A DNA stretch of 64,000 bases from Armatimonadota bacterium (GCA_041690135.1 JAWLHY010000008.1:64001-128000), one strand, 5' to 3'; positions 25,157 through 60,435 are shown, counted from the first letter of the stretch. Numbers and translations are program-made. The notes: generated by a model from the letters alone, not told the origin.

Positions 25157-25184
25157 AATGGGCGTTGGCGGACCTCGCCCGCCT

Positions 25185-33212: not shown

Positions 33213-33217
33213 GGGCG

Positions 33218-38657: not shown

Positions 38658-39950
38658 ATGGCGACGGACCGACGGCGGGTCGTAGTAACGGGCATGTCAA
38701 TCAACACCCCGCTTGGCGACGACCTGGACACCTTCTACGCGGCACTCCTCGCGGGCCGTTCGGCCATCACCCGGTGGAAGTTCTTCGAGCACGAGGGCGT
38801 CTACTCCAAGGTCGGCGGTGACCTCTCCGATTATGATTTCGGCGCGAAGCTCTCCGCACTGCGGGCGCGGCTTCCGGAAAGCCTGGGACTCCGGCTGCGG
38901 CAACTGTGCCGGAAAGCTCCGTTCTCCACGCGCCTTTCGATGCTGGCCGCGGCGGATGCCTGGCTGGATGCCGGGCTGGATGCGGGTATCGATCCGGCCC
39001 GCGGCGCGGTCCTGATTGGCGGGCACAACCTCAATACCCGGTACCTGATCGAGAACTACAACGTTTTTCGGGATGAGCCGGATTACATCGACTCGCAGGG
39101 AGCGTTGCTGACGCTGGATACGGACCATGCCGGCTCGGTGAGCGAGGTCCTGGGTTGGCACGGGGCGGCTTACACGATGGGTGGCGCATGCGCGAGCGCC
39201 AACCTCGCACTGCGGAGCGCCCTGGATGAGATCCGCTACCACGATCACGACATGGCGATGCTGGTCGGCGGCGTGCTCGATTTTACCGATATGGACCTTC
39301 ACGCGATGGCGCTCATCGGCGCCATCACCGTCCAGAGCTTCAATGACGATCCGGAGCGGGCCAGCCGTCCTTACGATGTGCGGCGGGAGGGGTTCGTCCC
39401 CTCTCACGGCACCGCCGGGCTGGTGCTGGAAGAATTGGAGCACGCGCGGGCCCGTGGCGCCCGGATCTACGCGGAAGTGCTGGGTTGCACCGCCACGGCC
39501 GACGGGTGTCACCTGCCTTCTCCTTCGACGGCGGGCCAGGCGCGGACGATCTCTCGCCTGTTGGATGAGACCAGGGTCGCGCCGGAAGAGGTCGACTTCG
39601 TCTCCGCGCACGCCACGTCCACGCCACTCGGGGATCTTTCCGAACTCCAGGCGATCAAACAGGTCTTCCAGGAGCACGCTTACCACCTCCGGATCAACGC
39701 GCCGAAGTCGATGCTGGGGCATACTTGCTGGTCGGCACCGGTGGTGGAAACGGTGGCGGCGCTCCTGCAACTGCGGGGCGGTCGGCTCCACCCCTCGATC
39801 AACATCGAGGAACTGGACCCGCAGGTCGATCTGGACATCTGCGCAGACGGACCCGTGGACCACGCGGCAAACGTAATCCTGAAGAACTCATTCGGCTTCG
39901 GCGGGCTGAACTGTTGTGCACTTTTCCGGCGGCTCGAGATGGCCGGTTAG
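38658..39950 (+). CDS. Stand-alone ketosynthase (FabF/PksF-like) with an intact Cys-His-His triad
   Basis: RRVVVTG, MGGACASAN, SRPYD.RREGFVP, AHATST, KSMLGH, NSFGFGGLN. Confidence 0.9.
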   Translation: MATDRRRVVVTGMSINTPLGDDLDTFYAALLAGRSAITRWKFFEHEGVYSKVGGDLSDYDFGAKLSALRARLPESLGLRLRQLCRKAPFSTRLSMLAAADAWLDAGLDAGIDPARGAVLIGGHNLNTRYLIENYNVFRDEPDYIDSQGALLTLDTDHAGSVSEVLGWHGAAYTMGGACASANLALRSALDEIRYHDHDMAMLVGGVLDFTDMDLHAMALIGAITVQSFNDDPERASRPYDVRREGFVPSHGTAGLVLEELEHARARGARIYAEVLGCTATADGCHLPSPSTAGQARTISRLLDETRVAPEEVDFVSAHATSTPLGDLSELQAIKQVFQEHAYHLRINAPKSMLGHTCWSAPVVETVAALLQLRGGRLHPSINIEELDPQVDLDICADGPVDHAANVILKNSFGFGGLNCCALFRRLEMAG

Positions 39951-39966
39951 CGATTTCGGGGGCTCG

Positions 39967-40713
39967 ATGGTTTTCTTTGTCACGGGGGGATCGCGCGGGA
40001 TCGGATCCGAGATCGTCCTGCAGGCAGTGGCCGCCGGTCACGACGTGGCTTTTACCTACGTCCGGGACCAGGCAGCGGCGGAAGATGTGCTCCGGCGGGC
40101 GCGCGAGGTGCGCCCGGCCGGCCGGTGTGCCGCCTATCAACTGGACGTGGCCGATGCGGCCCAGGTGGAGCGGGTGGGCGACCGCGTGCTGGAAGACTTC
40201 GACACCGTGGACGCGGTGGTGAACTGCGCGGGGATCCGGCGCGATAACCTGGCGGTGTCGATGGCGGACGAGGAATGGGCGGAAGTCCTGGCGGCCAACC
40301 TTACGGGGCCGTTCTACGTCTGTCGCCAGTTCCTGCCGACGATGCTGGCGAACCGTTTCGGGCGGATCGTGAACATCTCCTCGGTCCAGTACAACGGGGG
40401 CACGGGGCAGGCCAACTACGCCGCGAGCAAGGCAGGTCTCCACGGCCTCACCCTGACACTGGCGAAGGAATACGGCCGGAAAGGGATCACGGCGAACGTC
40501 ATAGTGCCGGGGTTCTTCGAGACGGATATGACCCGGGATACGCTGCCCGACGCTCTCCCGGAACACTGGCGGAAGCACTGCCCGATGCCGGGAGGGCGGT
40601 TCGGGCGCCTCTCGGAGCTGGCGGGGACCGTGCTCTTCCTCACCTCGGAAGCCGGCGGCTTCATCAATGGCGAGATCCTGCACGTCACCGGCGGCCTCAA
40701 CCACACCCTCTGA
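39967..40713 (+). CDS. FabG-like 3-oxoacyl-ACP reductase
   Basis: TGGSRGIG, NCAGI.RD, GQANYAASKAG, PGFFETDMT. Confidence 0.9.
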   Translation: MVFFVTGGSRGIGSEIVLQAVAAGHDVAFTYVRDQAAAEDVLRRAREVRPAGRCAAYQLDVADAAQVERVGDRVLEDFDTVDAVVNCAGIRRDNLAVSMADEEWAEVLAANLTGPFYVCRQFLPTMLANRFGRIVNISSVQYNGGTGQANYAASKAGLHGLTLTLAKEYGRKGITANVIVPGFFETDMTRDTLPDALPEHWRKHCPMPGGRFGRLSELAGTVLFLTSEAGGFINGEILHVTGGLNHTL

Positions 40714-40726
40714 CCGGGAACCACTG

Positions 40727-41971
40727 ATGAGTTATCCTCCGCGCCCGGATCGCGTCGGTATCGAGAAGATCGCGGCCTACCCGTGCACGCTATCGCTGGA
40801 TCTCCGGCTCCTGGCGGAGAAGCGTGGGGACCCGCCGGACTATCCTCGGAACGAGCTGAACGTGGAGACACGCTCGGTAAACCCGCCCTGGGAAGACCCG
40901 GTCACCATGGCCGTGAATGCCGCACAGACACTGCTCGGCGCGGGGAATCCGGAAGAAATCGGTCTGGTGCTCGTCGGGACGGAGTCGTCCCCGGATTTCG
41001 GCAAACCGATCTCCTCCTACGTCCAGCGGTTCTGCGAGATCCCCGCGAATTGCCGGAACCTGGAGACCAAGCACGCGTGCTACAGCGGCACCGGAGCCTT
41101 GATGCTGGCCGCGCACTGGATAGCGTCCGGCCTGCACCGGGGGAAGAAGGCGCTGGTCATCACCACCGATCAGAGCCGGGTGCACCTGGAGAAGCGATGG
41201 GAGTACGTGCTCGGCGCCGGAGCGGTGGCGATGCTCGTGAGCGACCAGCCGGACGTGCTGGAACTGGAACTGGAGCACAACGGTTATTGGAGCGCCGAGC
41301 TGGCCGACACCTACCGTCCCACGTCCACCGCGGAGGTGGGGCACGCCGAAACCAGCCTCTTCGGATACCTCGAAGCGCTGGAGAACACGTATGAGGCCTA
41401 CCTCGCTCAAGCGGGACCGGTGGAGTACACCTCCCATTTCAAGAGACACATCTATCACGTCCCCTTTGGTGGGATGACCCTTCGCGCCCACCGGGCTCTC
41501 CTCCGGCGCGAGGGCATCACCCGGGCTTCCGAAGTGCGGGCCAGCTTCGAGGAGCGGGTGCGGCCGTCGCTGCATTACACCGCGCGGATGGGCGGCACGT
41601 ACGGCTCGGCCACTTTCCTCGCGTTGATGAGCCTGATCGACTCCAGCGACGATCTGGGGCCCGGCGATCGCATCAGTCTCTTCTCCTACGGGTCCGGCTC
41701 CTGCGCGGAGTTCTACAGCGCGCGCATCGGACCACGCGCGCGGGCGGTGGTGGGTGCGGCGGGGCTCGCGCGGGCGCTGGAGGAGCGGGAAACCCTCACC
41801 GTGGAGGCCTACGAGCAGATCGAGCGTGAACGCTTCGCGGCGATCGATCGGTGCGACTACACGCCGGACCTGGGCCTGCCCGGAGGACTCTATGCACGGA
41901 AGTATGCCGGATGCCGGCGGCTGGTGCTGGAAAGTGTCACCGGGTATCAGCGCAACTACGGGTGGAGCTGA
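40727..41971 (+). CDS. HMG-ACP synthase (PksG-like beta-branching enzyme)
   Basis: EDPVTMAVNAA, GTESSPDFGK, ETKHACYSGT, YHVPFGGM, FSYGSGSCAEFYS. Confidence 0.92.
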   Translation: MSYPPRPDRVGIEKIAAYPCTLSLDLRLLAEKRGDPPDYPRNELNVETRSVNPPWEDPVTMAVNAAQTLLGAGNPEEIGLVLVGTESSPDFGKPISSYVQRFCEIPANCRNLETKHACYSGTGALMLAAHWIASGLHRGKKALVITTDQSRVHLEKRWEYVLGAGAVAMLVSDQPDVLELELEHNGYWSAELADTYRPTSTAEVGHAETSLFGYLEALENTYEAYLAQAGPVEYTSHFKRHIYHVPFGGMTLRAHRALLRREGITRASEVRASFEERVRPSLHYTARMGGTYGSATFLALMSLIDSSDDLGPGDRISLFSYGSGSCAEFYSARIGPRARAVVGAAGLARALEERETLTVEAYEQIERERFAAIDRCDYTPDLGLPGGLYARKYAGCRRLVLESVTGYQRNYGWS

Positions 41972-41975
41972 ACGG

Positions 41976-42752
41976 ATGCGGCTCCACTGCGAAACCCGTG
42001 AGACATCTGTATGGCGTGTGCAGCTTGAGCCAAACGCCGAGGGACGCACGCTCCTGAACCCGGCCGGGCTGCGAGACCTCGAAGCCGTGCTGACGCGCCT
42101 GGAGGCGGCTGAGCACTGCCGCGTGCTGCTGCTGGAGGGCGTGCCGGGTGAGTTCTGCTCCGGGATGGACCTGCAAGCGGCCCTGGAGCGCCGGGAAGAG
42201 GTTGCCGATGATCTCCGGCGGTATGCGGGGTGCCTGCGGAGGCTGCGGGAGCTTGCCTGCGTAGTGGTAGCGGTGGCGGATGGTCGCGTGATGGGGGGCG
42301 GGGTCGGTCTCGCCGCCGTCGCCGACCTAGTGTTGGCAACGCCCCGGGCCTCGTTCGCCCTGCCGGAGCTGGCGCTGGGGCTGATTCCCTCCCTTGTGCT
42401 GGCGGTGCTCTCCGAGCGGATGCCGCCGCAAAAGGCGCGCCGCCTGGTGTTGACCGGACAGCCGATCTCAGCGGAAAAGGCCGAAGCATTTGGTTTGGTG
42501 GACCAGTTGGTGGAAATCGAGGCGCTGCCGCAAACCGTTTCGGGCCTGCTGCGCCAGCTCCTGCGAGAGGATCCGCGATCGGTCGCACGGCTGAAGCGAT
42601 TTTCCCGGGGATTGGAAGGTCGGCCACTGTCCGCGGCGCTCGAGGCCGGTTGGCGGCAAACGGCCGGCGACCTGGCGGACCCGGCCATCCGCGCCGGCCT
42701 CCAGGGGTATCTGGAGGGGGAGCTGCCCCCCTGGTTTGAGCGGCGCGCATGA
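41976..42752 (+). CDS. Crotonase ECH1 (PksH-like HMG-ACP dehydratase)
   Basis: LEG.PGEFCSGMDL, GGGVGL, FALPELALGLIP; follows the HMG synthase. Confidence 0.85.
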   Translation: MRLHCETRETSVWRVQLEPNAEGRTLLNPAGLRDLEAVLTRLEAAEHCRVLLLEGVPGEFCSGMDLQAALERREEVADDLRRYAGCLRRLRELACVVVAVADGRVMGGGVGLAAVADLVLATPRASFALPELALGLIPSLVLAVLSERMPPQKARRLVLTGQPISAEKAEAFGLVDQLVEIEALPQTVSGLLRQLLREDPRSVARLKRFSRGLEGRPLSAALEAGWRQTAGDLADPAIRAGLQGYLEGELPPWFERRA

Positions 42753-43501
42753 ATCCGATTCTCCTCGAAATAGACGCCGATGGGGTGGCGGTGCTCCACA
42801 TGCGCGACGTGGCGGGGCGAAACGCGTTCAGCCGGCCCTTCGTCGAGGCGCTGGTCGAAGGTTTGGGCGGACTCGCGGACGAGCGCGTCAAAGTCGCCGT
42901 GCTCCGGGGGCTGGACGACGTCTTCTGCGCTGGCGCAGACCGCGAATTGCTGCTCGAGCTGGCGGAGGGCCGCCTTAGCCCTTACGACCTGCTGCTCACG
43001 CGCACGCTGCTAGAGGTGCCGGTTCCGACGATCGCCGCCATGGCGGGCCACGCGGTGGGCGGCGGACTGGTCCTCGGGCTTGCCTGCGATATGGTGGTCC
43101 TGGCGCGCGAGAGCCGCTACGGCTGCAACTTCATGGATCTCGGCTTCACGCCGGGGATGGGCGCTACGGGCCTGCTCCAGGCCGCGGTCGGGGAATACCT
43201 GGCGGCGGAGATGCTTTACAGTGCCCGATATGTGCGGGGCTCGGAGTTGGAAGGGCGGTCCGGAGTCAACGCCGTGCTCCCCAAGGCGCAGGTGTTGGAA
43301 CGCGCGCTGTCCCTGGCCGCGCGGATCGCCGGGATGGAGCGATATGCCCTCCGTATGCTCAAAGAAGCCCTCGTCACTCCCCGTCGTCGCGCGTTCGAGG
43401 AAGCGCGCGCGGTGGAGACGCGGATGCATGAAACCTGTTTCGCCCGTCCCGAGGTCCGGCAGCGGATCCGGGAGAATTATCCGGACCTGGAACGAAACTG
43501 A
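42749..43501 (+). CDS. Crotonase ECH2 (PksI-like methylglutaconyl-ACP decarboxylase)
   Basis: NAFS, AMAGHAVGGG, NFMDLGFTPGMGAT, MHETCF (conserved His). Confidence 0.88.
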   Translation: MNPILLEIDADGVAVLHMRDVAGRNAFSRPFVEALVEGLGGLADERVKVAVLRGLDDVFCAGADRELLLELAEGRLSPYDLLLTRTLLEVPVPTIAAMAGHAVGGGLVLGLACDMVVLARESRYGCNFMDLGFTPGMGATGLLQAAVGEYLAAEMLYSARYVRGSELEGRSGVNAVLPKAQVLERALSLAARIAGMERYALRMLKEALVTPRRRAFEEARAVETRMHETCFARPEVRQRIRENYPDLERN

Positions 43502-44238
43502 TGGTGCGCGACTTCCAAGAACGAGCGGTGTACGTGGCCGGGTGCGGGTGCGGGCCCGGCCCGGCGGTGGCGCTAGCTTTTTCCCGCGCGGGAGCGCGAG
43601 TCTACTTCGCGCCCGGCTGCAGGGCGGTTTCCGAGAGGGCACAACGGGACAACCTTGCCATAACAGTCGGCCGGTATGTGGTCGTATTCGAATCCGGTAA
43701 CCCGGAGGCGGAAGTGGCGGAGTTTGCTGCTTCCGCAAGATCCGCAGGGTCGCCGGATGATGCCGCACAGATCGACATCTTTGTCTGGTGTGCATGCTCC
43801 ACGCCGCCCAGTGATATGCAGCCAGGCGGTTTCGAACGGCTGCAAGAAGCGGTGGGAGAAGACAGTTGGCCGTTCGTCGCGCGGCTCCACGCTCTTCGGA
43901 AGGCAAATGGCCGTTACCCCCGCTATGCGGTTGCGCTGGCCGCACCGCTTGAAGGTAATCCTGACGGCGCCGCGACACTGGCGACGGAGGTGTTGGAAAC
44001 GCTCGTCCGGTATCACGCCACACACCTCCGCCCGGAGGGCGTGCGGGTCAACGCCGTGCGCGCGGCCGGTGGAGAGACCTCCGTCTCCCCACGTGAAGTT
44101 GCCGGTACGGTCCTCGCCCTCTGCAGCGGCCTCCTGGATGCAATGTCCGGCCAGGTCCTCCGGGTGGGGTCGGCATCACCTGCCGGGATGAGTAGCTGGC
44201 TGGCTGACCCGTCATCCGAGAAAGGAGCTTCCGGATGA
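43501..44238 (+). CDS. Degenerate SDR, paralog of the neighbouring enoyl reductases (probable pseudo-enzyme)
   Basis: Shares SWPFV, GRYPRYAVAL, LETLVRY, EGVRVNAVRA and LCSG.LD...GQVL.V, but has an altered Gly loop and lacks catalytic Tyr/Lys. Confidence 0.7.
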   Translation: MVRDFQERAVYVAGCGCGPGPAVALAFSRAGARVYFAPGCRAVSERAQRDNLAITVGRYVVVFESGNPEAEVAEFAASARSAGSPDDAAQIDIFVWCACSTPPSDMQPGGFERLQEAVGEDSWPFVARLHALRKANGRYPRYAVALAAPLEGNPDGAATLATEVLETLVRYHATHLRPEGVRVNAVRAAGGETSVSPREVAGTVLALCSGLLDAMSGQVLRVGSASPAGMSSWLADPSSEKGASG

Positions 44239-45083
44239 ACCCGAACGATTTCCGGGGCCGGGGAGTACTGGTTACGGGGGGAACCCAGGGGATCGGCCTG
44301 GCGGTGGGCCTCGCTTTCGGGCGGCTCGGCGCCGACGTCTTCCTGACCCATCGCTGGGGCTCCGCGGACGAAGCGGAACTCCGGGAGCGGTTCCGCGAGG
44401 TAGGCGCGGCGCCTCCGTCCATCCTGGAGGCGGACGTTTCCCAGGAAGAGGATACCTGCGCCGTGATGGAGCAGATCCGCGAGCACTGCGGCCGTCTCGA
44501 CGTGCTGGTGAGCAACGTCTCCTTCGCCCGGATTGCCGCCGAGCCGGCCAGCCTGCGCTGGCGGGACCTGACCCGCGGCTTACGGTATAGCGCCTGGCCG
44601 TTGGTGGAGTACCTGCAGGCGTGTCGCCGTGAGTTGGGATGCTACCCTCGCTACGCCGTGGCTCTCTCGTCCCGCGGGCCGGACATGTTCCTTCCCGGCT
44701 ACGACCTGGTAGCGGCCAGTAAGACGGTGCTGGAGATGCTCTGCCGGCAGCTGGCGACGGAGTTGCGAGAAGAGGGAGTCCGGGTGAATGCCCTCCGCGC
44801 TAACCCGGTCGATACGCGCTCCCTGGCTGCGACGTTCGGTCCCGAGTTTGCGGCGTTCTGCCGAAAGTATTACGGCGACGACTACCTGGTCCTGCCGGAA
44901 GAAGTTGCCGACGCGGTGGTGGCGCTCTGCAGTGGCTGGATGGACGGGGTCTCCGGCGAGGTGCTGTTCGTCGATCGCGGCTGTAGCTTTTCAGACAACG
45001 TGGCCCGGCTTTACACGGAGCGAGCCCAATTGGGCCTGGAGGTGGAAGCCGATTTCTCGGAACCTATCGATACGAAAGGATGA
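44235..45083 (+). CDS. FabL/FabI-like enoyl-ACP reductase (SDR)
   Basis: TGGTQGIG; Y-X6-K motif YDLVAASK; VDRG. Confidence 0.78.
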   Translation: MNPNDFRGRGVLVTGGTQGIGLAVGLAFGRLGADVFLTHRWGSADEAELRERFREVGAAPPSILEADVSQEEDTCAVMEQIREHCGRLDVLVSNVSFARIAAEPASLRWRDLTRGLRYSAWPLVEYLQACRRELGCYPRYAVALSSRGPDMFLPGYDLVAASKTVLEMLCRQLATELREEGVRVNALRANPVDTRSLAATFGPEFAAFCRKYYGDDYLVLPEEVADAVVALCSGWMDGVSGEVLFVDRGCSFSDNVARLYTERAQLGLEVEADFSEPIDTKG

Positions 45084-45355
45084 AGATGATCACACGGGAA
45101 GCGGTCTTTGAAGTCGTAAAGCGGAACCTGGGGGAAGTGGTGGAGGACCTGGAAGGGGTGGAGATCGATCCCAACCAGAGCATGGTCGAACTGGGCGCCA
45201 ACAGCCTCGACATCGTCGAGGTTGTCTCCTGCAGCATGCGCGAGTTGAAGATCAAAGTGCCCCGCGCGGAACTGTCGAAGCTCAAGAACATCGGGGAACT
45301 GGTGGATCTCCTCTACCGAGTAGCCCGCGAAAAGGAAGATCAGGGCGCCGCCTGA
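45080..45355 (+). CDS. Acyl carrier protein, AcpK-like
   Basis: LGANSLD phosphopantetheine site; KVPRAELSKLKNIGELVDLLY. Confidence 0.92.
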   Translation: MKMITREAVFEVVKRNLGEVVEDLEGVEIDPNQSMVELGANSLDIVEVVSCSMRELKIKVPRAELSKLKNIGELVDLLYRVAREKEDQGAA

Positions 45356-45374
45356 CCGGGCGGATACCGGCACC

Positions 45375-46898
45375 ATGCGCATTGCAGTGATCGGGGGAGG
45401 GGCGGCCGGGCTCACGGCAGCCTGGCGCCTGTCCCGGAAACACGAGGTGTCGCTTTACGAAGCGAACTCCTGGCTGGGCGGGCACGCGCGAACCGTGGAG
45501 GTTCCGGGACCGGGCAGGACTGTCCCTGTGGATATGGGGTTCCTCGTATTCCACGAGTGGATCTACACGAACTTTTCCGCGCTGCTCGCACATCTCGGCG
45601 TGGCTGCGGTGCCGACCCCGCCTCAGACCACTGCCGTGTCGTTCCCGGGTGGCGCGTGGAAAACGGGACTCGCGACGCCGTTCTGGAGCACCGTAAGCGA
45701 GGAAGCGGATCGTTTCCACCGGATGCTGCCCTCAGTTGTGGCCGATCCGGTCCGGTATGCCGGGTTGAAACTGGGCGACTTCCTGGACGGGAACGGGTTC
45801 TCGGAAGATTTCAAGTACAAGTGCGTGTGTCCGGTCGGCGGCTCTCGCTTCGTGACCCGGCGGGGCGTGCTGGAACTGTCGGTGCTGGAGTTTGCGGCCG
45901 GCTTTGGTCCGGTGGCGCTCTACTCCATCATCCAACCGACCTTCTGGCGGACCGTCGGGGGCGGGATGCGGGAATACATCGACCGCCTGGCAGGGGAGAT
46001 CACCGGGGAAGTTCACCCTTCCACACCCGTCCGGTCCGTCCAGCGGTCCCGCGGCGGCATCACCGTGACCCTGGCCGGTGGCCAGGTGGAGACGTTCGAT
46101 CAGGTGGTGGTGGCGACCGGCGCGGATGTGGCCCTCCGGTTGCTGGCCGATCCCAGCCCCGAGGAAAAGCTCCTGTTGGGTTCTTCCTACCAGGAGACGC
46201 GGGTGGTGCTCCATACGGACCCTTCCGTGATGCCGGACGACCGGAGCCTCTGGGCGGCAGACACCTACGTCACGCACGAGACCGCGCCCCCCTACCAGCG
46301 GGGCTGGGTGAGTTACTATCTGCCGGACACACAGCCCTGGGTGGATTTCGACATCTTCGTGACCGTGGGTGCTCCGGAAGGGCTGATCGCCCCCGACCGG
46401 ATCCTGGAGGAGCACCGGTGGCGCCACCTGGAGGCGGACAGTGTGCAGTTGCTGCGCTCCATGGAATTGCACCGGATCCAGGGGAAGCAGCGGACCTGGT
46501 TCTGCGGAGAGTACGCGGGAATGTACGGCGGTCACGAGTCCAGCGTGGTGACCGGCCTCGCCGTGGCCGCCGCGTTGGGCGCCGACTACCCCTTCACGGA
46601 AAATGCCGCGGCCTACCGGGTGTTCCTGGACACGGCCGTCAACCATATGCGCGTGCTGGACGGTCCGCGTCCGGCGGCCGATGCCACCTGGTGGCCGCCG
46701 GTGCTGGGTGAGGTGAACGCCCGGATGATCCGGGAAATCGCACGGGAAGAAGTGCGCGGGGTACTCCGGCAAAAGCTGCCCAGTCCCCTGGCGGCCCTAC
46801 TGGACCGGCTGCCCTGGATCGAGGATACCCTGGTCCGGCAGATCGCAGGGCGGATCTCGCTGCTGGAAGAGGCGGTCCGGCGCCAGCCGGAGGCCTGA
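45375..46898 (+). CDS. FAD-dependent oxidoreductase (COG2907 / UfaD-like acyl-chain desaturase or isomerase)
   Basis: IAVIGGGAAG, LGGHARTV, VPVDMGFLVF...Y.NF, VVLHTD.SVMP, IQG...TWFCG, GGHES. Confidence 0.75.
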   Translation: MRIAVIGGGAAGLTAAWRLSRKHEVSLYEANSWLGGHARTVEVPGPGRTVPVDMGFLVFHEWIYTNFSALLAHLGVAAVPTPPQTTAVSFPGGAWKTGLATPFWSTVSEEADRFHRMLPSVVADPVRYAGLKLGDFLDGNGFSEDFKYKCVCPVGGSRFVTRRGVLELSVLEFAAGFGPVALYSIIQPTFWRTVGGGMREYIDRLAGEITGEVHPSTPVRSVQRSRGGITVTLAGGQVETFDQVVVATGADVALRLLADPSPEEKLLLGSSYQETRVVLHTDPSVMPDDRSLWAADTYVTHETAPPYQRGWVSYYLPDTQPWVDFDIFVTVGAPEGLIAPDRILEEHRWRHLEADSVQLLRSMELHRIQGKQRTWFCGEYAGMYGGHESSVVTGLAVAAALGADYPFTENAAAYRVFLDTAVNHMRVLDGPRPAADATWWPPVLGEVNARMIREIAREEVRGVLRQKLPSPLAALLDRLPWIEDTLVRQIAGRISLLEEAVRRQPEA

Positions 46899-46964
46899 CG
46901 CGAGGGGCCGGGACGGGTCCGGAGCGTGCCGTTTGAGCTGGGTATGAGAGGAGCATGCGAGAGT

Positions 46965-48224
46965 ATGAGCGGGGCGATGGAAGAACAGCTTTCGGTAACC
47001 GATTTCTACCTGGGCTCCGAGACGGATCCCCTTGCTCCACCGCCGGAGTTCGCGGAGTGGCTGCGAGCAACGGAGCCAGCCTGGAGCCTCTATGAGCGAT
47101 CGTTGTGCGCGGCGCCTACCGCGCGGACGCTTCTGGAAGTGCGAGGGCAACCCCATCCGGTCATCAACCTGACCTCGTACAACTACCTGGGGCTTTCGTG
47201 CCATCCGGAGGTGATAGCCGCGGCCCGCGAGACACTGGAAAGCTGGGGCACCGGCGCTTGTGGCTCGGCGATCCTCTCCGGGATGACCGTGCTTCACCGG
47301 GAGTTGGAACGCCAGATCGCCGGCTTGCTGGGCCGGGAGACCACCCTTTTGTTCAGCAGCGGCTTCGGCGGGGCATTGGGGCTCACTTCCGGGTTCCTCC
47401 GCCGGGGGGACGTCGCGGTGGTGGATGAACGGGTGCATATTTCCTTGATGGATGGCGTCCGACTTTCCGGGGCGCAGACGGCGACGTTCACTCACAACGA
47501 CCCGGCCGCTCTCGACCAGGTGCTGGCACGTTACCCGAACCGGCGCCGGGTGGTAGTCGTGGAAGGTCTTTATTCGATGGATGGCGATCTTCCCGATCTG
47601 CCGGCTCTGTTGGAAGTAGCCGAGGCGCATGGAGTGGGGCTGGTGATTGATGAAGCCCATTCCTTCCTCGCGTTTGGCGAGACGGGAGGTGGCATCACCG
47701 AACAGGCCGGCGTGCAGGACCGGGTCCGGTTGTTCTACGGAACCTTCTCCAAGGCGCTCGGCGGGATTGGTGGCTTCGTATCCGGTCCGGCGGATGCCCT
47801 GGGCTACATGCGCCTCTTTTCGCACCCCTATGCCTTCTCATGCGCCCTTCCCCCCCTGACGGTAGCCGGCTTGCTGGCAGGGCTCCGGGTGGCCACGCGC
47901 GATCGGACCCTCCGGGCGCGGTTATTGGAGAACGGCGAGTATTTCCGGAGGGGTCTGCAATCGATCGGTATCGACACCGGTCTTTCCACCACCCACGTGG
48001 TGCCGATCGTCCTCGGGCGGCGCCGGGACCTGCTCTACACGGCGGGGCACCAACTGGTAGAGCGCGGGTTGTTCCTCGCGCCGGTGGACTATCCCGCGGT
48101 GCCGGAAGACCAGGTGCGGTTCCGCGCCTCCGTGACGGCGATGCATACCCGGGAGGACCTGGACGAAGCGCTGCAAATCATCGAGGACGTGATCGCCCGG
48201 CCGCTACGCCGGGGCGTGGGCTAA
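46965..48224 (+). CDS. PLP-dependent alpha-oxoamine synthase, serine-palmitoyltransferase-like
   Basis: NLTSYNYLGL, HISLMDG, EGLYSMDGD, DEAHS, GTFSKALG, YPAVP..RFR. Confidence 0.85.
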   Translation: MSGAMEEQLSVTDFYLGSETDPLAPPPEFAEWLRATEPAWSLYERSLCAAPTARTLLEVRGQPHPVINLTSYNYLGLSCHPEVIAAARETLESWGTGACGSAILSGMTVLHRELERQIAGLLGRETTLLFSSGFGGALGLTSGFLRRGDVAVVDERVHISLMDGVRLSGAQTATFTHNDPAALDQVLARYPNRRRVVVVEGLYSMDGDLPDLPALLEVAEAHGVGLVIDEAHSFLAFGETGGGITEQAGVQDRVRLFYGTFSKALGGIGGFVSGPADALGYMRLFSHPYAFSCALPPLTVAGLLAGLRVATRDRTLRARLLENGEYFRRGLQSIGIDTGLSTTHVVPIVLGRRRDLLYTAGHQLVERGLFLAPVDYPAVPEDQVRFRASVTAMHTREDLDEALQIIEDVIARPLRRGVG

Positions 48225-48248
48225 CCGAAGAGTTGTGAGAGGACGAAC

Positions 48249-48782
48249 ATGGACCCGGAAGAACTGCGAGCCCTGATCCGTACGGCCCGACGAAAGCCGC
48301 TGTTCGATCCTACGGTCGCCGGGGATCCTCGCGACCTGGGGCGAGAGCAGTTGGTCCGGATTTTGCCTCACCGGGGTACGATGCTGCTGCTGGACGGCAT
48401 CGACCGGGTGGACCTCGAAGGCGGTCGTATCGTCGGCCGCCGCCGCGTGGCGGCGGCCGATCCGGTGTTCGGCGACCATTTCCCGGGCTACCCGGTCTAT
48501 CCGGGGGTCCTCCAGGTGGAGATGATGGGGCAACTGGGTCTCTGCCTGGCCGTTTTCACGGATCGGGGCGCCGTTGAACTGCCGGAGGAGGGGAGAGCCT
48601 TGCAGGTGCGCCTCCTCCGGATCCACCATGCGCTCTTTGTGCAGGAGGTCCGTCCGGATGACCGCCTGACAGTGCTGGCGAAGGTGCTGCACGAGGACGG
48701 AACCACGATGATCTGTACGGGCCAGTTGCTTCGGGACGGGGAAGTGTTAAGTATCGCGGTGCTCGAGGCTTTCCGGGCCTAG
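48249..48782 (+). CDS. FabZ-like beta-hydroxyacyl-ACP dehydratase
   Basis: LPHR, HFPGYPVYPGVLQVEMMGQ, EVRPDD. Confidence 0.88.
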   Translation: MDPEELRALIRTARRKPLFDPTVAGDPRDLGREQLVRILPHRGTMLLLDGIDRVDLEGGRIVGRRRVAAADPVFGDHFPGYPVYPGVLQVEMMGQLGLCLAVFTDRGAVELPEEGRALQVRLLRIHHALFVQEVRPDDRLTVLAKVLHEDGTTMICTGQLLRDGEVLSIAVLEAFRA

Positions 48783-48803
48783 TCGGGAAAGAGGGGAGAG
48801 GGC

Positions 48804-49610
48804 GTGTTCGACTTACGGGGGAAGACAGTCCTGCTTACCGGCGGGACCATGGGGATCGGCCTCGCCACCGCGCTCAAGTTCGGAAGCGTGGGGGCGCGCA
48901 CGATCCTCACCTGCCGGTTCGGCTCGGCGGATGAGGACGAGGTCCGCAGCCAGTTCGCCGCAATAGATGCTCCCATGCCGCTGATCGTTCAGGCGGACGT
49001 GGCGAACGAGGAGGACACGGTTGCGCTGATGGACGAGATCGCGCGGGAGCACGACGGGGTCGATATCTTCATCTCCAACGTCTCGTTCGCGCTCCGGATC
49101 TCCGGGCTGGAGGACTACGATAAACGCGCTTTACTCCGGGGCATTGAGTACACGTCATGGCCCCTCTGGGCTTATACGCGGGCTCTCCGGGAGCGGTTCG
49201 GACGGTATCCGCGCTATGTCGTCGGGCTTTCCAGCGACGGCCCCGACTCCTACTACCTGAACTACGACTTCGTGGCGATGTCCAAGTCGCTTCTGGAAAC
49301 CCTCTGCCGTTACATGAATTACCGGCTCTTCGATGAAGGGGTGCGGGTAAACGTGGTCCGCTCGCGGATGATCGTGACTGAATCGATGCTCGCCACCTTT
49401 GGCGAGGATTTCGCGGAGTACCTGCGCCGCCTGAAGGTGGAGGAACTGAGCATCAGCCCCGATGACGTGGCCGGGGTGGTAGTCTCGCTCTGCAGTGGCT
49501 GGATGGACGCGGTCGCCGGCCAGGTGATCCGGGTCGACCGCGGCACGGCGTTCTTCGACAACACCATGGGGTTCTTCGAGCGGATCGAGCAAAGGCATGA
49601 GCCGCTCTAA
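48804..49610 (+). CDS. Second FabL/FabI-like enoyl-ACP reductase (SDR)
   Basis: TGGTMGIG; Y-X6-K motif YDFVAMSK; collinear with 44235-45083. Confidence 0.78.
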   Translation: MFDLRGKTVLLTGGTMGIGLATALKFGSVGARTILTCRFGSADEDEVRSQFAAIDAPMPLIVQADVANEEDTVALMDEIAREHDGVDIFISNVSFALRISGLEDYDKRALLRGIEYTSWPLWAYTRALRERFGRYPRYVVGLSSDGPDSYYLNYDFVAMSKSLLETLCRYMNYRLFDEGVRVNVVRSRMIVTESMLATFGEDFAEYLRRLKVEELSISPDDVAGVVVSLCSGWMDAVAGQVIRVDRGTAFFDNTMGFFERIEQRHEPL

Positions 49611-50481
49611 GGTAGCGCCCCGGGAAAGCCGGTACTTCCATGCCAGGCATGTGCTGGTGACCGGCGGCTCCAGCGGGATCGGGCTGGCGGTCGCGGAAGG
49701 CATTGCCGCGCGGGGCGGTCGGGTCACGCTGATCGCCCGTGATCCAAGCCGGCTCGAGGAAGCGCGCCACCGCATCGAGAGCCGCTACCCGGCATCCGTG
49801 GTGGGTCTTCTGGAGTTGGACGTCGCCGAGGAAGAGGCGGTCCATTCAACGGTGCCCGCCTACCTCAACGAGCATCCGGCGTGGGGATTGGTCAACAGTG
49901 CCGGCATCACCTTGCCGGGACGGGCGCTGGAATTGGGCTCGGAAGACTTCCGCTCCCAGATGCAGGTGAATTACTTCGGGACGGTCGCGATGTGCCGGAC
50001 CGTGGTGCCGGACCTCATCGCCCGGGGCGAAGGCCACGTGGTGAACGTCGGTTCCCTGCTGTCGGTGATGTCCATCTACGGGCACTCCGCGTACTCGGCG
50101 AGCAAGTTCGCGGTTTATGCCTTCACCGACGCGCTCCGGGCGGAAATGACCCGGAACGGGGTACGGGTCAGCCTGCTGCTGCCGGGGGACACGGATACTC
50201 CGCAACACCAGCATGAGCGCCGGTACCTGCCGCCGGAAACCCGCGCAATTGCCGGCTCCGTGAAACTGCTGTCGGCGGAGCAGGTGGCGGCCGAGCTATT
50301 GCGGGGAATGGCGCGAGGGGCCTTCGAGATCATCCCCGGCACCGAGGCCCGCGCCGCAGTTCTAGCCTACCGCTGGTTTCCGGACCTGGCCCGCTGGGTG
50401 TGGTCCCGCGCCGAACGCCGGGCGATGAGCATTTCCGGGGAGTCCGCTACGGACCTTCCCACCGAACAGAAGGGTCGGTGA
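49597..50481 (+). CDS. 3-ketodihydrosphingosine reductase (KDSR/Tsc10)-like SDR
   Basis: HVLVTGGSSGIG, VTLIAR, VNYFG, AYSASKFA, and the KDSR-like PGDTDTP....E....PPETRAI. Confidence 0.75.
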   Translation: MSRSKVAPRESRYFHARHVLVTGGSSGIGLAVAEGIAARGGRVTLIARDPSRLEEARHRIESRYPASVVGLLELDVAEEEAVHSTVPAYLNEHPAWGLVNSAGITLPGRALELGSEDFRSQMQVNYFGTVAMCRTVVPDLIARGEGHVVNVGSLLSVMSIYGHSAYSASKFAVYAFTDALRAEMTRNGVRVSLLLPGDTDTPQHQHERRYLPPETRAIAGSVKLLSAEQVAAELLRGMARGAFEIIPGTEARAAVLAYRWFPDLARWVWSRAERRAMSISGESATDLPTEQKGR

Positions 50482-50577: not shown

Positions 50578-51369
50578 TTACTCCAGGTAACGGCGGACCC
50601 GGTTCTTCCAACCGGTGAGCCACCGCTTCTCACCGCGGGCGGGGGGAGAGTTCTCCACGCGGCGCGTGAGGACGGACTCCGCGCTGGCGGCGAACTCCTT
50701 TACCGGCCCCGGTCCCTTCCCCTTCATGCCCGCCAGGACCTGGAGGAGGCCCCAGCCCTGGCCCTGGTAGCGCTCGGTCTCCTTGATGCCTTCGCCTTTG
50801 AAGTTGACGTAGTCGATCAGGGCGAAGGTACCGGCGCTGCTGCCCAGCATCCGCTGGAACTGGGCTCTAACGTTCTCCCGCTGCGCCGCGGGCGCGGCCT
50901 CCAGCATCTTGGGGAGGCTCGCTTCCATGCGCTGGACGATAAAGCGGCTCTGGAGCGAGAGGGTGCGAGAGAGGAGATTCCGCAGCTCCTTCATGCGGGG
51001 GCTCTGGAAGTCCCGCTCGAACTCCGCCTTCGTGGACCACGGGCAGGGCCTATCGAGGGCCCATTCCGGGACCGAAGCACCCTCCTCCGCCAGGAACCGG
51101 GCGAGTCGCGGGAAGGCCTCGTCGAAGGGTCCACTGTAGCCTTTCGGATACCAGATAAAGTGACCGATGCCGAGGGAAGCAAACTGCTCGCCGGCATTCC
51201 AGGAGGTCAGGCCGTCGATCCGTCCACCGCACTCGTTCTGCCAGATTCGCTTCCCAATGGTGGTCAGTTGCTGGTCCGTCAATTCAACAGCGCAGGCGGC
51301 ACTCGTGCCGGCGATGCACGATGCCAGTAAGAGCACGCGAAGGATATGGAGAATAACTGTAGGGCTCAT
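50578..51369 (-). CDS. Exported conserved hypothetical protein
   Basis: Signal peptide; IWQNECGG..DGLTSWN.GE.FASLGIGHFIWYP; ALIDYVNFKGEG. Confidence 0.8.
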   Translation of the reverse strand: MSPTVILHILRVLLLASCIAGTSAACAVELTDQQLTTIGKRIWQNECGGRIDGLTSWNAGEQFASLGIGHFIWYPKGYSGPFDEAFPRLARFLAEEGASVPEWALDRPCPWSTKAEFERDFQSPRMKELRNLLSRTLSLQSRFIVQRMEASLPKMLEAAPAAQRENVRAQFQRMLGSSAGTFALIDYVNFKGEGIKETERYQGQGWGLLQVLAGMKGKGPGPVKEFAASAESVLTRRVENSPPARGEKRWLTGWKNRVRRYLE

Positions 51370-53372
51370 AGGGCGGTGGTACTTGGGACGTCTTGCAAGA
51401 GGGAGCGCAGTTCTTCGATATCGATCGGCTTCACCCGGTGGTGGTCAAATCCGGCCTGGAGTGCCGCATCCTGGTCCGCAGGCAGTCCATGCCCGGTGAG
51501 CGCTATCAGGATCGCTTCCGACCCTTCCTCCCGAAGTTTACGGGCAAGCGTGTATCCATCGATCCCGGGCAGTCCTACATCCAGAATGCCCACGTGGGGC
51601 GGTTCTTCGCGTGCGAGTTGGAGGGCCTGGTCTCCACTCCTTGCCAGCCGAACGGTGTATCCCCACATCTCCAGGATCTCCTTCAAGGTCGCGGCCGCAT
51701 CTTCTTGGTCTTCCGCAACTAGAACCACCTGTCGGTGCGGCTGCTGCGGCAGAGCCTCTTCACTGCCGGCGATTTCCTCGGCCCCGGACAGTTCCGGTCC
51801 TCCGGTGAGCGGCAGGCGGACGGTGAATTCGCTGCCCCGATTCGGTCCGGCGCTATAAACTTCAAGCTGCCCCTCGTGCAATTCCACCAGACGCCTGACC
51901 AGCGTCAGGCCAATTCCCAATCCGCCCTCGCTGGAGCCGAGCGACCGCTTCTCCTGGATAAAAAGGTCGAAGATGGTTGACAGGTGTTCCGGATCGATCC
52001 CCAACCCGTTGTCCCGCACCCGGAAGATGAGAGCCCCATTCTCCAACCCCAGGAACACATTAATCTCGCCTTCCGGCTGGGTGTACTTGGCGGCGTTTCC
52101 CAGCAGGTTTACAAACACTTGCTCCATCCGGTCCGGGTCGGCGACCGCCCAGAGTGGCTGGTCCGGTAGATCCAGGCGGAGCATGTGGCGCTTGGCGCTG
52201 ATGAGGGGCTGGACGGCCTCAACGGCGCCTTGTAGCGACTCCCGCAGGTCGGTGCGCTGGGGTCTGAGTTCGATGACGCCGCGAGTGATCCGCGAGACAT
52301 CGAGTAGATCTTCCACCAGGCGCTCCAGATGCCGAGTTTGACGCCGGATGGTCGCAACCGGCCGGTCGGCCCGGGCCTCGCCGCTCCGCCTCTCCAGGAG
52401 GTAAAGGGCGTTGGAGACCGCGGCCAGCGGATTGCGCAGTTCGTGTGCCAGGGCAGCGAGGAATTCATCCTTGCGACGGTTCGCTTCCTCTTCGCGCTGG
52501 TAGAGGCGATTGACCTCGGCAAGGAGTTCCCTTTGCTTCCGGAGCGTGTCGATGTAAGTCCGGTACGCCGCGAACACCAGATAGAGGCAGGGCAGCAAAA
52601 GCAGTGCAATCGGACCGGCAGAAGTGTAGGCGATGGCGATTCCTCCCGCGACGGTAGCCGAAAGGAAATAGACGGGCGCCATCCAGAAACAATGCTCTCT
52701 CCACACCTGGAGAGGAGACTGACCCTGTTCGAAAGCGATGGCGGCAGCTACTCCAAAGGTGTTGATGAGGAAGTAGGAACTCGTGAAAACGATCAACTCG
52801 GAGAGTTCCCGCTGCCACCCCGCGTGCGCCAGTGGCCCAACCGCCCAGCCCAGCCAGCCGGCCAGCGCACCGGCCAGCGCGCAGTGAGCCACGTTGAAGA
52901 CTCTGCGGTAAGAGGGTTGGTTGAAATAGCGTAGCCGCCACCAGGCGCCTTCGGGACGAACCAGATGGGTGAGGAGAGCGCCGACGCCGGCGCAGAGCGT
53001 GGCCGCCTGTACGCCCTGGATAAGCAGCGCCAGGCAGACCACGGCAAACACCAGGCTTTGCCGGCTTTGCTTGAGGGTCACCTCGATCCGCCAGACCCCG
53101 GCCACTGCGGCGACCAGCAGCAGCGCACCCGTTACCCACGCTTGATTCGGTGCCGGCAGGCGAGCTACTAAGACTGCCGCTGGCAGCACCCCACCAACGT
53201 GCAGCAGGATATACCACTGTAATGAACGGGGAAGATGCCCGAACCCCGCCCCTTTCCCTGCCCCGGTCGCCTTCACGGATGTGGGCCGCCTCCTGTCGGG
53301 TATTCGTCCTATCCCCAGGTCAATTTCGCTCTGCGGGCCGGCCGGGCGAAGCTTGTTTCGCGCAGCGATCAA
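51366..53372 (-). CDS. Hybrid histidine kinase with a multi-TM (MASE-like) sensor domain
   Basis: About 7 hydrophobic helices (VFNVA, YFLINT), KDEFLAALAHELRNPL, HATPase and REC. The true start is probably downstream of 53372. Confidence 0.88.
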   Translation of the reverse strand: MIAARNKLRPAGPQSEIDLGIGRIPDRRRPTSVKATGAGKGAGFGHLPRSLQWYILLHVGGVLPAAVLVARLPAPNQAWVTGALLLVAAVAGVWRIEVTLKQSRQSLVFAVVCLALLIQGVQAATLCAGVGALLTHLVRPEGAWWRLRYFNQPSYRRVFNVAHCALAGALAGWLGWAVGPLAHAGWQRELSELIVFTSSYFLINTFGVAAAIAFEQGQSPLQVWREHCFWMAPVYFLSATVAGGIAIAYTSAGPIALLLLPCLYLVFAAYRTYIDTLRKQRELLAEVNRLYQREEEANRRKDEFLAALAHELRNPLAAVSNALYLLERRSGEARADRPVATIRRQTRHLERLVEDLLDVSRITRGVIELRPQRTDLRESLQGAVEAVQPLISAKRHMLRLDLPDQPLWAVADPDRMEQVFVNLLGNAAKYTQPEGEINVFLGLENGALIFRVRDNGLGIDPEHLSTIFDLFIQEKRSLGSSEGGLGIGLTLVRRLVELHEGQLEVYSAGPNRGSEFTVRLPLTGGPELSGAEEIAGSEEALPQQPHRQVVLVAEDQEDAAATLKEILEMWGYTVRLARSGDQALQLAREEPPHVGILDVGLPGIDGYTLARKLREEGSEAILIALTGHGLPADQDAALQAGFDHHRVKPIDIEELRSLLQDVPSTTAL

Positions 53373-56552: not shown

Positions 56553-57479
56553 CTACCGGACGTGCCATGGTTCTACCAGGGGTTTGGCGCCATTCAGCTC
56601 CCCGTAACCCGCCCCCGTGGTGCCGGTAGGATCGGGACCGAAGTAGCGAGGATCCATGGGGTCGGCGGCCGGCTGAAACCGGATGTCACAGGAGAGCCGT
56701 ACCCGGTTGTCCGCCGCATGATGGTCGAAAGAGCCGTGCATCAGCGTCATGCTAAAGAGGATCGCATCGCCGGGGTGGAAGTGCGTCGAAAGTAGCCGCG
56801 TGCTCCGCTGGCAGGCCAGGGTGATTGCGTCCTCCCGCGCAGCAAGTCGCGGTGTGTTCACATCGTCGTAATCGACTTTGCGGATCGGTGCGATCAGGTC
56901 CTCATACGTCTGGGAGCCCTCCAGTACCATAAGTGGGCCCAATTCCAGCGGGATCTCACCCAGGGCGATCCAAACCGTGTGCACGCGCTGCGAGCCCCGG
57001 CAGAAGAACGGCAGATCGTAGTGGAGGTCCGTCGCTTTGCCGGGAGTGCCGACCCGCAGGAACAGGTAATCGTGCGGGTGGGCCGGCTCGCCGACGCAGT
57101 TGGAAACCAGTGCGCGGAGTTCGGGTCCGTGGGTGACCCGACGCAGAGCCGGACCTTCCGAAACGCTCTTCCAGAAGGCGCCCAGATCGGGAGCCAGCTC
57201 GCGCCGCCGGCTCCTCCCGGTGAAGATTCCCTCGATCGCCGGTTCGGTGATCTCGTCGACCTCCATCAGGCGCGACAGTGCTTCCTCACGCGCGGCGAGC
57301 ACAAGCGCCGGAGCGACGGCCTTCCGCACGAATACATAGCCATCGGTCGCGATCCGGTCCTGCAGGGCCGCGGCGTCCTCCCGCAGCGCCGAGCTATCGC
57401 GAAGCTCTCCCAGTAGCTCGTGCGGAACCGGATGCCCATACACCTGTGCCGAACTCAATTCACCCTCCCTGGTTACCAT
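56553..57479 (-). CDS. PhyH-family Fe(II)/2-oxoglutarate dioxygenase
   Basis: DGYVFVR, LHYD (HxD), TVWIALG, MHGS, RLSCDIRFQ. Confidence 0.88.
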   Translation of the reverse strand: MVTREGELSSAQVYGHPVPHELLGELRDSSALREDAAALQDRIATDGYVFVRKAVAPALVLAAREEALSRLMEVDEITEPAIEGIFTGRSRRRELAPDLGAFWKSVSEGPALRRVTHGPELRALVSNCVGEPAHPHDYLFLRVGTPGKATDLHYDLPFFCRGSQRVHTVWIALGEIPLELGPLMVLEGSQTYEDLIAPIRKVDYDDVNTPRLAAREDAITLACQRSTRLLSTHFHPGDAILFSMTLMHGSFDHHAADNRVRLSCDIRFQPAADPMDPRYFGPDPTGTTGAGYGELNGAKPLVEPWHVR

Positions 57480-57690
57480 GTTCGTCTCATTACCTGCTCC
57501 ATTCAGCAATACAAGCCCAGGTCCAGGCGGTCACGAAGTATCCCGCCCTACATCGATAGGTGCAAGGACAGAGACCGTACTGTTCACCAGCATAACGGAG
57601 TTTACGGGCAACTGACCCATTGGCTACGTCTATCAGGTCACCCCTGGATCACCTTCGCTCGTCCGGAGTGATTGTCCTTGGATCCGGGTT

Positions 57691-59048
<1,358 letters not shown>

Positions 59049-59052
<4 letters not shown>

Positions 59053-60254: not shown

Positions 60255-60365
60255 CCCCGGCGCTCCTCTTGGCAGTCGCCCAAGCAGCCCTTTTGTCGCA
60301 ACCGGAAAACTTCGACGCAAAACTTCCGCAAAACAAAAGGAGTCTGGGTGTCGCTTATAGAAGTG

Positions 60366-60388
60366 GTGACATAGCAACGATATATCAC
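60366..60388. promoter_or_regulatory. Candidate GntR operator
   Basis: Imperfect palindrome GTGACATA-N7-TATATCAC containing GATATATC, in an AT-rich divergent intergenic region. Confidence 0.5.
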
Positions 60389-60435
60389 TGGAACTGGGGC
60401 TCAAGCCACCCGCTGCTCGTTTCGATCCAACCTGT

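Follow-up and report, generated by a model that had tools for sequence, protein, structure and literature searches.

A 13-gene operon at positions 38658-50481 (+) of a 64,000-nucleotide stretch of contig JAWLHY010000008.1 (assembly GCA_041690135.1, nucleotides 64001-128000; hereafter the window) combines genes for building and methyl-branching an acyl chain with genes for a serine palmitoyltransferase (SPT)-like synthase and a short-chain dehydrogenase/reductase (SDR) of the KDSR/TSC10 family. The synthase and the SDR are proposed to act at the final committed stage of this operon, which is read as self-contained and dependent on a carrier protein; its product would be a methyl-branched, sphinganine-like amino alcohol that is subsequently oxidised. 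A probability of roughly 0.55 was assigned to this reading. The first-pass annotation of the window had described the region 46965-50481 as a pair formed by an SPT-like enzyme and a eukaryote-type, KDSR-like reductase. Both genes are real, but they do not stand alone, as the 13 co-directional genes overlap or are separated by short gaps only. The same span also holds a FabZ-like dehydratase gene (48249-48782) and an enoyl-reductase-like SDR gene (48804-49610), neither of which had been mentioned. The overlooked context that matters most, namely a type II fatty acid synthase (FAS-II)-like set, a 3-hydroxy-3-methylglutaryl-CoA synthase (HCS) β-branching cassette, an ACP (acyl carrier protein) and also a flavin amine oxidase, is indicative of a product that is branched and specialised.

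The genes of the operon, in their order and with the abbreviations used below, are as follows.

38658..39950 (+), KS, β-ketoacyl-ACP synthase of the PksF/FabF family; Pfam ketoacyl-synt N- and C-terminal domains
39916..40713 (+), FabG-type 3-oxoacyl-ACP reductase; adh_short_C2 at 2.6e-54, true start likely near 39967
40667..41971 (+), HMGS, 3-hydroxy-3-methylglutaryl (HMG)-ACP synthase of the HCS (β-branching) type; likely start 40727, closest solved relatives CurD and PksG
41754..42752 (+), ECH1-type dehydratase with crotonase fold; ECH_1 at 3.5e-36, likely start 41976
42749..43501 (+), ECH2-type decarboxylase; NCBIfam NF005496 (PRK07110) at 279 bits, above the cut-off of 215
43501..44238 (+), degenerate enoyl-reductase paralogue; weak adh_short_C2 match (1.4e-09)
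44235..45083 (+), ER1, FabL/FabI-like enoyl-ACP reductase; adh_short_C2 at 1.3e-38, Y-x6-K motif
45080..45355 (+), dedicated acyl carrier protein, AcpK-like; PP-binding domain, NF005502 at 74.9 bits (cut-off 79)
45375..46898 (+), FAD amine oxidase, LkcE-related; Amino_oxidase at 5e-25, LkcE at 210 bits
46926..48224 (+), SPT-like α-oxoamine synthase (P0001); GTG start with an alternative ATG at 46965, giving 432 or 419 residues, Aminotran_1_2 at 1.4e-49
48249..48782 (+), FabZ-like 3-hydroxyacyl-ACP dehydratase; FabA-like domain at 9.3e-18, FabZ models at 73-76 bits, below their cut-offs
48804..49610 (+), ER2, second FabL/FabI-like enoyl-ACP reductase; adh_short_C2 at 2e-31, Y-x6-K motif
49597..50481 (+), classical SDR of the KDSR/TSC10 family (P0002); 294 residues, adh_short at 1.4e-44

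In the proposed route the FAS-II-like enzymes (KS, FabG, FabZ and the two FabL-like enoyl reductases), together with HMGS, ECH1 and ECH2, would assemble an acyl chain with a methyl branch, bound to the ACP that the operon itself encodes. The SPT-like enzyme, which is predicted to use pyridoxal phosphate (PLP), would then join this acyl-ACP to an amino acid, for which L-serine is the most likely candidate, in a condensation that yields CO2 and a 2-amino-3-keto lipid. The 3-keto group would be reduced by the KDSR-family SDR to give the branched, sphinganine-like amino alcohol, probably with NADPH as cofactor, since Arg48 follows strand 2. The LkcE-related oxidase would probably act on the C-N bond, either forming an imine or removing the amine. 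The gene set, the family placements of its products and the conserved occurrence of the core cluster at other loci were observed directly, while the substrates, branch position, chain length, amino acid, order of steps and role of the oxidase are those that we infer. A more far-reaching version, tentative and on balance doubtful, is that the operon encodes an undescribed route to methyl-branched sphingoid bases on which the intermediates stay carrier-bound throughout. In this version the KDSR- and LkcE-family enzymes would lead to a lipid-derived imine, a cyclic alkaloid or a keto-alcohol that serves as a signal or an antibiotic and not as a membrane lipid.

The synthase contains the sequences TSYNYLGLS and YGTFSKALGG, and thereby the SYNYLG and GTFSK motifs already reported at first pass, as well as an IDEAHS motif. 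An alignment of 24 homologues shows no variation at K276, D242 and H245. By these motifs it was assigned to the α-oxoamine synthase family of PLP enzymes of fold type I. The bioF model (TIGR00858) gave its top NCBIfam score with 310 bits, and JGI names for its homologues read glycine C-acetyltransferase or 8-amino-7-oxononanoate synthase. Such results would suit a housekeeping BioF or Kbl enzyme with a generic dehydrogenase nearby by chance, but this explanation is very improbable. The bioF score is below the cut-off of 426 bits, as is that of the Kbl model (NF005394; 283 bits, cut-off 460), while two paralogues elsewhere in the genome (on C1 and C9) exceed these values with 482 bits for BioF and 508 bits for Kbl. 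The operon synthase is 34-38% identical to these paralogues and, as true BioF and Kbl genes are present elsewhere, is regarded as a third, specialised copy. It is also part of a conserved operon with an ACP and the FAS/HCS set, and a long branch divides it from BioF and Kbl in the tree described below. A BioF or Kbl identity was therefore rejected, and the initial view of the enzyme as SPT-like held.

A profile search of metagenome contigs with the 24 aligned synthase homologues returned 553 relatives, and the analysis was carried on with the 80 best-scoring loci. Other genes of the operon accompany the synthase in 10 of these 80 loci. The set FabZ-KS-FabG-HMGS-ECH-ER-ACP-ER is found in L005, L006, L007 and L065, and some of these cluster loci add a malonyl-transferase-like acyltransferase, an AMP-binding enzyme (L006) or an epimerase-type SDR. 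Candidates for the keto reduction among the relatives are extended, epimerase-type SDRs (L007, L014 and L017) and, in L065, an SDR of the KdsR-like kind, which suggests that the reduction step recurs but is filled by non-homologous enzymes. In the remaining 70 loci the synthase has a different setting, and the 23 with long flanks were examined. All 23 carry a fatty acid hydroxylase and the synthase, 21 a Lipid_DES desaturase, 21 a CDP-alcohol transferase and 20 a GNAT protein of 377 residues; an NTP transferase (13/23) and a classical SDR (12/23) often follow. Judged by its gene content, this setting is a sphingolipid operon. It is very common in soil metagenomes, as exemplified by L008 (8078-15835) and 22 further loci (L022, L031, L039 and others), with the order Lipid_DES desaturase, fatty acid hydroxylase, SPT-like synthase, CDP-alcohol transferase, GNAT, second CDP-alcohol transferase, NTP transferase and KdsR-like SDR. 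Upstream there are often genes for a Kdo transferase and an AsmA-like protein, as well as one resembling diacylglycerol kinase.

The synthase tree comprised 53 rows. Included were 10 cluster-linked loci, 23 from the approximately 70 operon loci, 15 taken from 120 listed proteins, and 4 outgroups. The operon synthase fell into one clade (SH-aLRT 98) with the synthases of the 10 cluster-linked loci and with proteins from metagenome-assembled genomes (MAGs) of Polyangiaceae. This clade is sister, with a support of 100, to the synthases of the sphingolipid operons, and a long branch leads to BioF, Kbl and two distant homologues. The nearest relatives, 54-66% identical, are metagenomic or derive from the Polyangiaceae MAGs, and the identity to the enzymes of the sphingolipid operons is 54-56%. 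A search of genome contigs with the single sequence yielded three distant loci of 33-38% identity, and matches among plasmids all reached 38.6% identity or less, with no useful SPT references among them. The sister relation, together with the SPT of S. multivorum as best solved match by a narrow margin, indirectly supports a putative SPT activity, i.e. the conversion of L-serine and a long-chain acyl thioester to 3-ketosphinganine.

The SDR carries the motifs HVLVTGGSSGIG, NYFG, YSASKFA and PGDTDTPQHQHERRYLPPETRAI. All motifs quoted for it in the first-pass annotation are present, but four residues instead of three separate DTDTP from the following glutamate. Invariant in 32 homologues are T22-G29, N125, S153, Y166, K170, P196, T201, P202, E207 and P212. 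Homologues with 53-56% identity derive from MAGs of Myxococcota and Deltaproteobacteria; many homologues (JGI), and Atlas clusters as well, bear '3-dehydrosphinganine reductase' as an automatic name. PF23441, assigned to some of the homologues, is a generic SDR model and was discarded as an identification. When the 32 sequences were used as a profile, Tsc10 was the best single-domain solved match (174.5 bits, against 171.1 bits for clavaldehyde dehydrogenase), and the alignment spanned the C-terminal part. In an exhaustive search of 1.84 billion cluster representatives, 143,074 matched at E<=0.001, and 476 still did so at E<=1e-30. The 150 best-scoring of the 143,074 included TSC10A of the amoeba Balamuthia mandrillaris (P0374; 154.7 bits, 41% identity) and a sequence from EukProt (P0354; 157.4 bits). 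The identity to the Balamuthia protein is 41% in the HMMER stretches and 36% in alignment A3.

With the eukaryotic enzymes (Tsc10, 8JAT; Balamuthia P0374) the SDR shares TGGSSGIG, the N-S-Y-K catalytic residues and a PxDTDTP...E...KPxET...G segment after strand 6, which is common to the SDR and the eukaryotic rows. Unlike them, it has neither a hydrophobic N-terminal segment nor a long hydrophobic C-terminal extension; these eukaryotic membrane anchors are absent from the SDR and its bacterial relatives in alignment A3. The SDR tree had 51 rows; from the 150 representatives, 30 were chosen according to rank and length, and two eukaryotic sequences only were included. The operon SDR and both eukaryotic rows, along with bacterial representatives and three fusion proteins, formed a clade with a support of 96. 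Outside it lay the six KdsR-like SDRs from related loci, as did eight further SDRs encoded in the genome of the operon. Within this clade the operon SDR groups with proteins from Myxococcota MAGs (support 99), and the eukaryotic sequences stand elsewhere, near a fusion protein from Chloroflexota (support 95). The Bacteroides KdsR model NF049977 gave 107 bits against a cut-off of 400, over the Rossmann half only, and two other SDRs of the genome scored higher. On this model, 165-197 bits were reached by the SDRs from the sphingolipid operons and from L065, which lie outside the KDSR clade. The description of the SDR as eukaryote-type and KDSR-like, not of the Bacteroides KdsR type, was thus retained. 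By sequence and tree it belongs to the KDSR/TSC10 family of classical SDRs, a large and mostly bacterial family, and it is predicted to be an NADPH-dependent 3-keto reductase for the product of the synthase.

A link between this SDR family and α-oxoamine synthase chemistry is indicated by natural fusions. In P0289 (744 residues) a KDSR-like SDR is joined to an α-oxoamine synthase, the latter being 37% identical to that of the operon. P0318 (764 residues, from a Chloroflexota MAG) is a fusion with an AMP-binding enzyme, and P0387 (608 residues) one with an epimerase-type SDR. Fusions with an MFS transporter (P0332, 669 residues) and with a methyltransferase (P0307, 465 residues) also occur.

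The gene pair had further been considered relevant to the origin of KDSR. No particular weight can be given to the operon SDR in this respect, as the KDSR-like family is large and widespread in bacteria (the 476 cluster representatives at E<=1e-30), and a KDSR-like SDR beside an SPT-type synthase has already been published (PMC12134224). The eukaryotic sequences are nested among bacterial ones in the small SDR tree, which bears on the eukaryotic source of KDSR, but the operon SDR is not their closest bacterial relative. In the top-ranked Atlas cluster named '3-dehydrosphinganine reductase family', Promethearchaeota (Asgard) is the commonest phylum among the few members with a record, and this cluster offers a lead on the origin of KDSR.

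The placement of the SDR within the KDSR/TSC10 clade and the sister relation of the synthases would also agree with a membrane sphingolipid (ceramide) pathway that begins with this pair and follows the eukaryote-like order of SPT, 3-ketosphinganine reduction and N-acylation. The same logic is published for Pseudomonas SgaB/SgaC (PMC12134224) and for Bacteroides BT_0972 (PMC9278070), and Planctomycetota were named potential sphingolipid producers from their Spt homologues (PMC11334938). Such a pathway is nevertheless unlikely here, as the probes used, which would not recognise a ceramide synthase of unrelated sequence, gave no candidate for the N-acyltransferase. When the sphingolipid-operon GNAT, desaturase and hydroxylase served as tblastn queries, nothing was detected in the genome at E<=1e-5. 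A search of the genome for TLC/Lag1 ceramide synthases gave no match, although the controls were silent too. With the sphingolipid-operon probe, and not Caulobacter bCerS/CerR, no GNAT homologue of a Caulobacter-type ceramide pathway was detected, and the operon has no extended SDR. A ceramide is less likely as the product for want of an N-acyltransferase, and the branching cassette and the amine oxidase of the operon fit a specialised metabolite better. The eukaryote-like reaction order claimed at first pass could not be read relative to N-acylation, as no bCerS-like GNAT, desaturase, hydroxylase or TLC synthase was found in the genome. Nothing found here demonstrates a ceramide or membrane-sphingolipid pathway, and in this respect the earlier claim was overstated.

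The closest solved relatives of HMGS are CurD (277 bits) and PksG (236 bits), while housekeeping HMG-CoA synthases scored about 150 bits, and no other HMGS match was present in the genome. ECH2 is closest to PksI (156 bits) and to the ECH2 of CurF (140 bits). For ECH1 the resemblance is one of best hit only (PRK07112, 124.8 bits, below the cut-off of 250). The three predicted enzymes HMGS, ECH1 and ECH2 together constitute a polyketide-type HCS β-branching cassette. In the KS the Cys-His-His triad is intact (GGACAS, AHATST and GHT, with the same motifs in 6/6 related loci); it scored 353 bits with PRK07103 (cut-off 445) and 293 bits with fabF. The FabG gene gave 201.6 bits with the FabG-subfamily model PRK12826.1-2, the cut-off of which is 222. 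The best NCBIfam match of ER1 was FabL with 96.8 bits, below the cut-off. The Y-x6-K spacing in ER1 and ER2 is one that we take to be that of FabI/FabL-type enoyl reductases. ER2 is 48-61% identical to enoyl reductase genes of the related clusters, and the ACP is 55-68% identical to their ACPs. The degenerate paralogue directly preceding ER1 has no Gly-rich motif and no Tyr/Lys pair, and is 33-37% identical to the enoyl reductase genes of related loci, which have two such genes in place of this arrangement. It is probably non-catalytic and may be a non-catalytic partner subunit.

The oxidase gene lies directly upstream of the synthase gene. Its product matched LkcE (PDB 6F32) with 210 bits over residues 2-416, i.e. 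over nearly the full length, and is of the same MAO-type subfamily. In LkcE-type cyclases the residues E64, Y182 and R326 show strict conservation, according to PMC6162330. In a manual reading of the alignment, with the chain numbering shifted by 4, these residues correspond to L57, E172 and Y314 of the oxidase. A function as LkcE-type amide oxidase/Mannich cyclase was rejected on account of the three non-matching signature residues, and the enzyme was read as a plain flavin C-N oxidase of the LkcE subfamily.

An oxidase in this position invites another explanation, namely that the amino ketone is converted to a small or mid-sized, nitrogen-free or cyclic metabolite, such as an α-hydroxyketone-type signal, a pyrazine or a cyclic imine. 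The acyl chain would then be short and branched, e.g. derived from isovaleryl, with the amine either removed or cyclised through the action of the oxidase. In line with this, the synthase gene of L065 is immediately followed by one for another type of flavin oxidase (FAD_binding_4/ALO), there are sensor kinase genes to either side of the operon, and an HCS cassette working on acetoacetyl-ACP would, with an enoyl reductase, give isovaleryl-ACP by established HCS chemistry. A product of this kind was nonetheless judged improbable. The identity of 54-56% to the synthases of sphingolipid operons implies long chains, and the CqsA-type model gave the lowest score of all synthase models (194 bits, cut-off 428). 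The complete elongation set (KS with its Cys, FabG, FabZ and enoyl reductase) argues for several rounds of extension, and the LkcE-related oxidase does not recur in any of the 80 related loci.

Several results weigh against the proposed conversion of a branched acyl-ACP to a sphinganine-like amino alcohol. The KDSR-like SDR and the LkcE-related oxidase are both absent from all 80 related loci, and the link of these two genes to the conserved core therefore rests on the present operon. The synthase did not reach the cut-offs of the curated bacterial SPT models NF047599, NF047600 and NF047603 (291/500, 271/640 and 228/670 bits). The synthase of the Lipid_DES/GNAT sphingolipid operon, which served as a control, likewise failed with 315/500, 323/640 and 267/670 bits; these models cover only their named clades, and failure therefore says little about function. 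The best solved relatives of the synthase were nearly tied, with 224 bits for the SPT of S. multivorum and 221 bits for a BioF/Kbl enzyme of Thermus. Used as a single sequence, the SDR matched Tsc10 only in ninth place among solved chains (80.6 against 97.2 bits). Its C-terminal 106 residues alone did not retrieve Tsc10 from the solved chains, and the best matches were unrelated proteins (E 0.34). A structure model of the SDR (pLDDT 93.4) was compared with the PDB by Foldseek; HSD17B13 and generic SDRs ranked first and Tsc10 was not among the matches listed, from which it is concluded that the fold does not discriminate among classical SDRs. The synthase and SDR trees were quick searches on hand-picked rows, and both were built without characterised SPTs, SgaB/SgaC, Caulobacter bCerS/CerR, or human or yeast KDSR.

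The branching cassette itself is not typical in every respect. In the decarboxylating KS of HCS cassettes the catalytic Cys is replaced by Ser, and branch-accepting ACPs are flagged by a Trp. A KS with Ser is absent from the cluster, the residue being Cys in the operon and in 6/6 relatives, and the ACP has no Trp after the serine of its NSLD motif. The cluster also lacks an acyltransferase. With the HCS cassettes of bacillaene (AcpK/PksF/PksG/PksH/PksI) and curacin (CurB-F) the operon has in common HMGS, ECH2, an AcpK-like ACP and a KS of the PksF family. It differs from them in having no modular polyketide synthase (PKS), a KS that keeps its Cys, an embedding in FAS-II-like genes and an α-oxoamine synthase at the end.

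The pairing of such a synthase with a KDSR-like SDR is already known, being in print for Pseudomonas SgaB/SgaC and for Bacteroides. In Pseudomonas fluorescens MYb115, SgaA, SgaB and SgaC produce PKS-derived sphingolipids, and an SDR homologous to KDSR lies beside the SPT-type synthase (PMC12134224). The authors of that paper regard the reduction step as eukaryote-like, non-canonical and unusual outside Bacteroides and Prevotella. Like the Sga system, the operon has a dedicated chain-building machine that would deliver an acyl thioester to an SPT-type synthase, and an SDR homologous to KDSR is proposed for the 3-keto reduction. Whereas the chain of the Sga system is made by an iterative type I PKS, the operon has discrete FAS-II-like enzymes, HMGS/ECH1/ECH2, a free-standing ACP and a flavin amine oxidase; the likeness to SgaB/SgaC is one of published description.

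The reductase KdsR of Bacteroides thetaiotaomicron is BT_0972 (PMC9278070). The same reaction, reduction of 3-ketosphinganine by a classical SDR, is proposed for the operon SDR, which nevertheless belongs to a different SDR subfamily, as its score of 107 bits against the KdsR cut-off of 400 indicates. The Caulobacter/Rhodobacteria-type ceramide pathway consists of Spt with an ACP and an acyl-ACP synthetase, bCerS and CerR (PMC9386255; Stankeviciute 2022). An SPT-type enzyme with a dedicated ACP is common to both systems, and relatives of the operon contain an AMP-binding enzyme (L006) or an extended SDR (L007, L014 and L017). In contrast to the Caulobacter type, the operon lacks an acyl-ACP synthetase as well as a bCerS-like GNAT and an extended SDR, and a classical SDR of the KDSR family is present instead. 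No description of a branching cassette joined to an α-oxoamine synthase or to sphingolipids was found in the literature, of which subscription journals lay outside the coverage. If the proposed route is correct, bacteria make branched long-chain bases by borrowing the methyl-branching cassette of polyketide synthesis. The operon also offers, next to the enzyme that likely forms its substrate, a bacterial representative of the KDSR/TSC10 family that lends itself to testing.

Neither gene of the pair was found in other members of the phylum within the limits of the searches. The SDR was not detected in 40 relatives at E<=1e-40 or, at E<=1e-45 and with only six candidates scored per genome, in 400 further genomes from the phylum, and the synthase was not detected in the same 400 genomes at E<=1e-90. 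This absence, together with the affinities to Myxococcota, fits a lateral acquisition, and the operon was probably acquired in this way. As a planctomycete singleton of probably lateral origin it says little on the lipids of the phylum as a whole. The operon has planctomycete marker families (DUF1559 with N_methyl; PSD/PSCyt/DUF1552) to either side of it and the G+C content is even across the window (0.60-0.69), which shows that the operon is embedded in the contig of its host and does not result from a binning error.

A scan for promoters and terminators gave no promoter-like sites and four terminator-like sites, fewer than in shuffled sequences. Directly past the operon, on the opposite strand, lies an open reading frame of 263 residues (50578-51369, -) with a signal-peptide-like start and no Pfam or NCBIfam match. 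The flanks of the operon (33218-38355, -; 51366-53372, -) encode three hybrid sensor kinases that contain receiver domains and, in two cases, PAS domains; these are possible regulators of it. An O-methyltransferase gene lies upstream (32214-33377, -), and genes for a PhyH-family dioxygenase, a class III aminotransferase and BNR-repeat proteins lie downstream (56553-60404, -). As unrelated genes intervene, none of these was counted as part of the operon. Farther upstream (20636-27047, -) an AAA_35/WD40/TPR protein of 1578 residues adjoins a BTAD-AAA_35 protein, and the two form a STAND-like pair.

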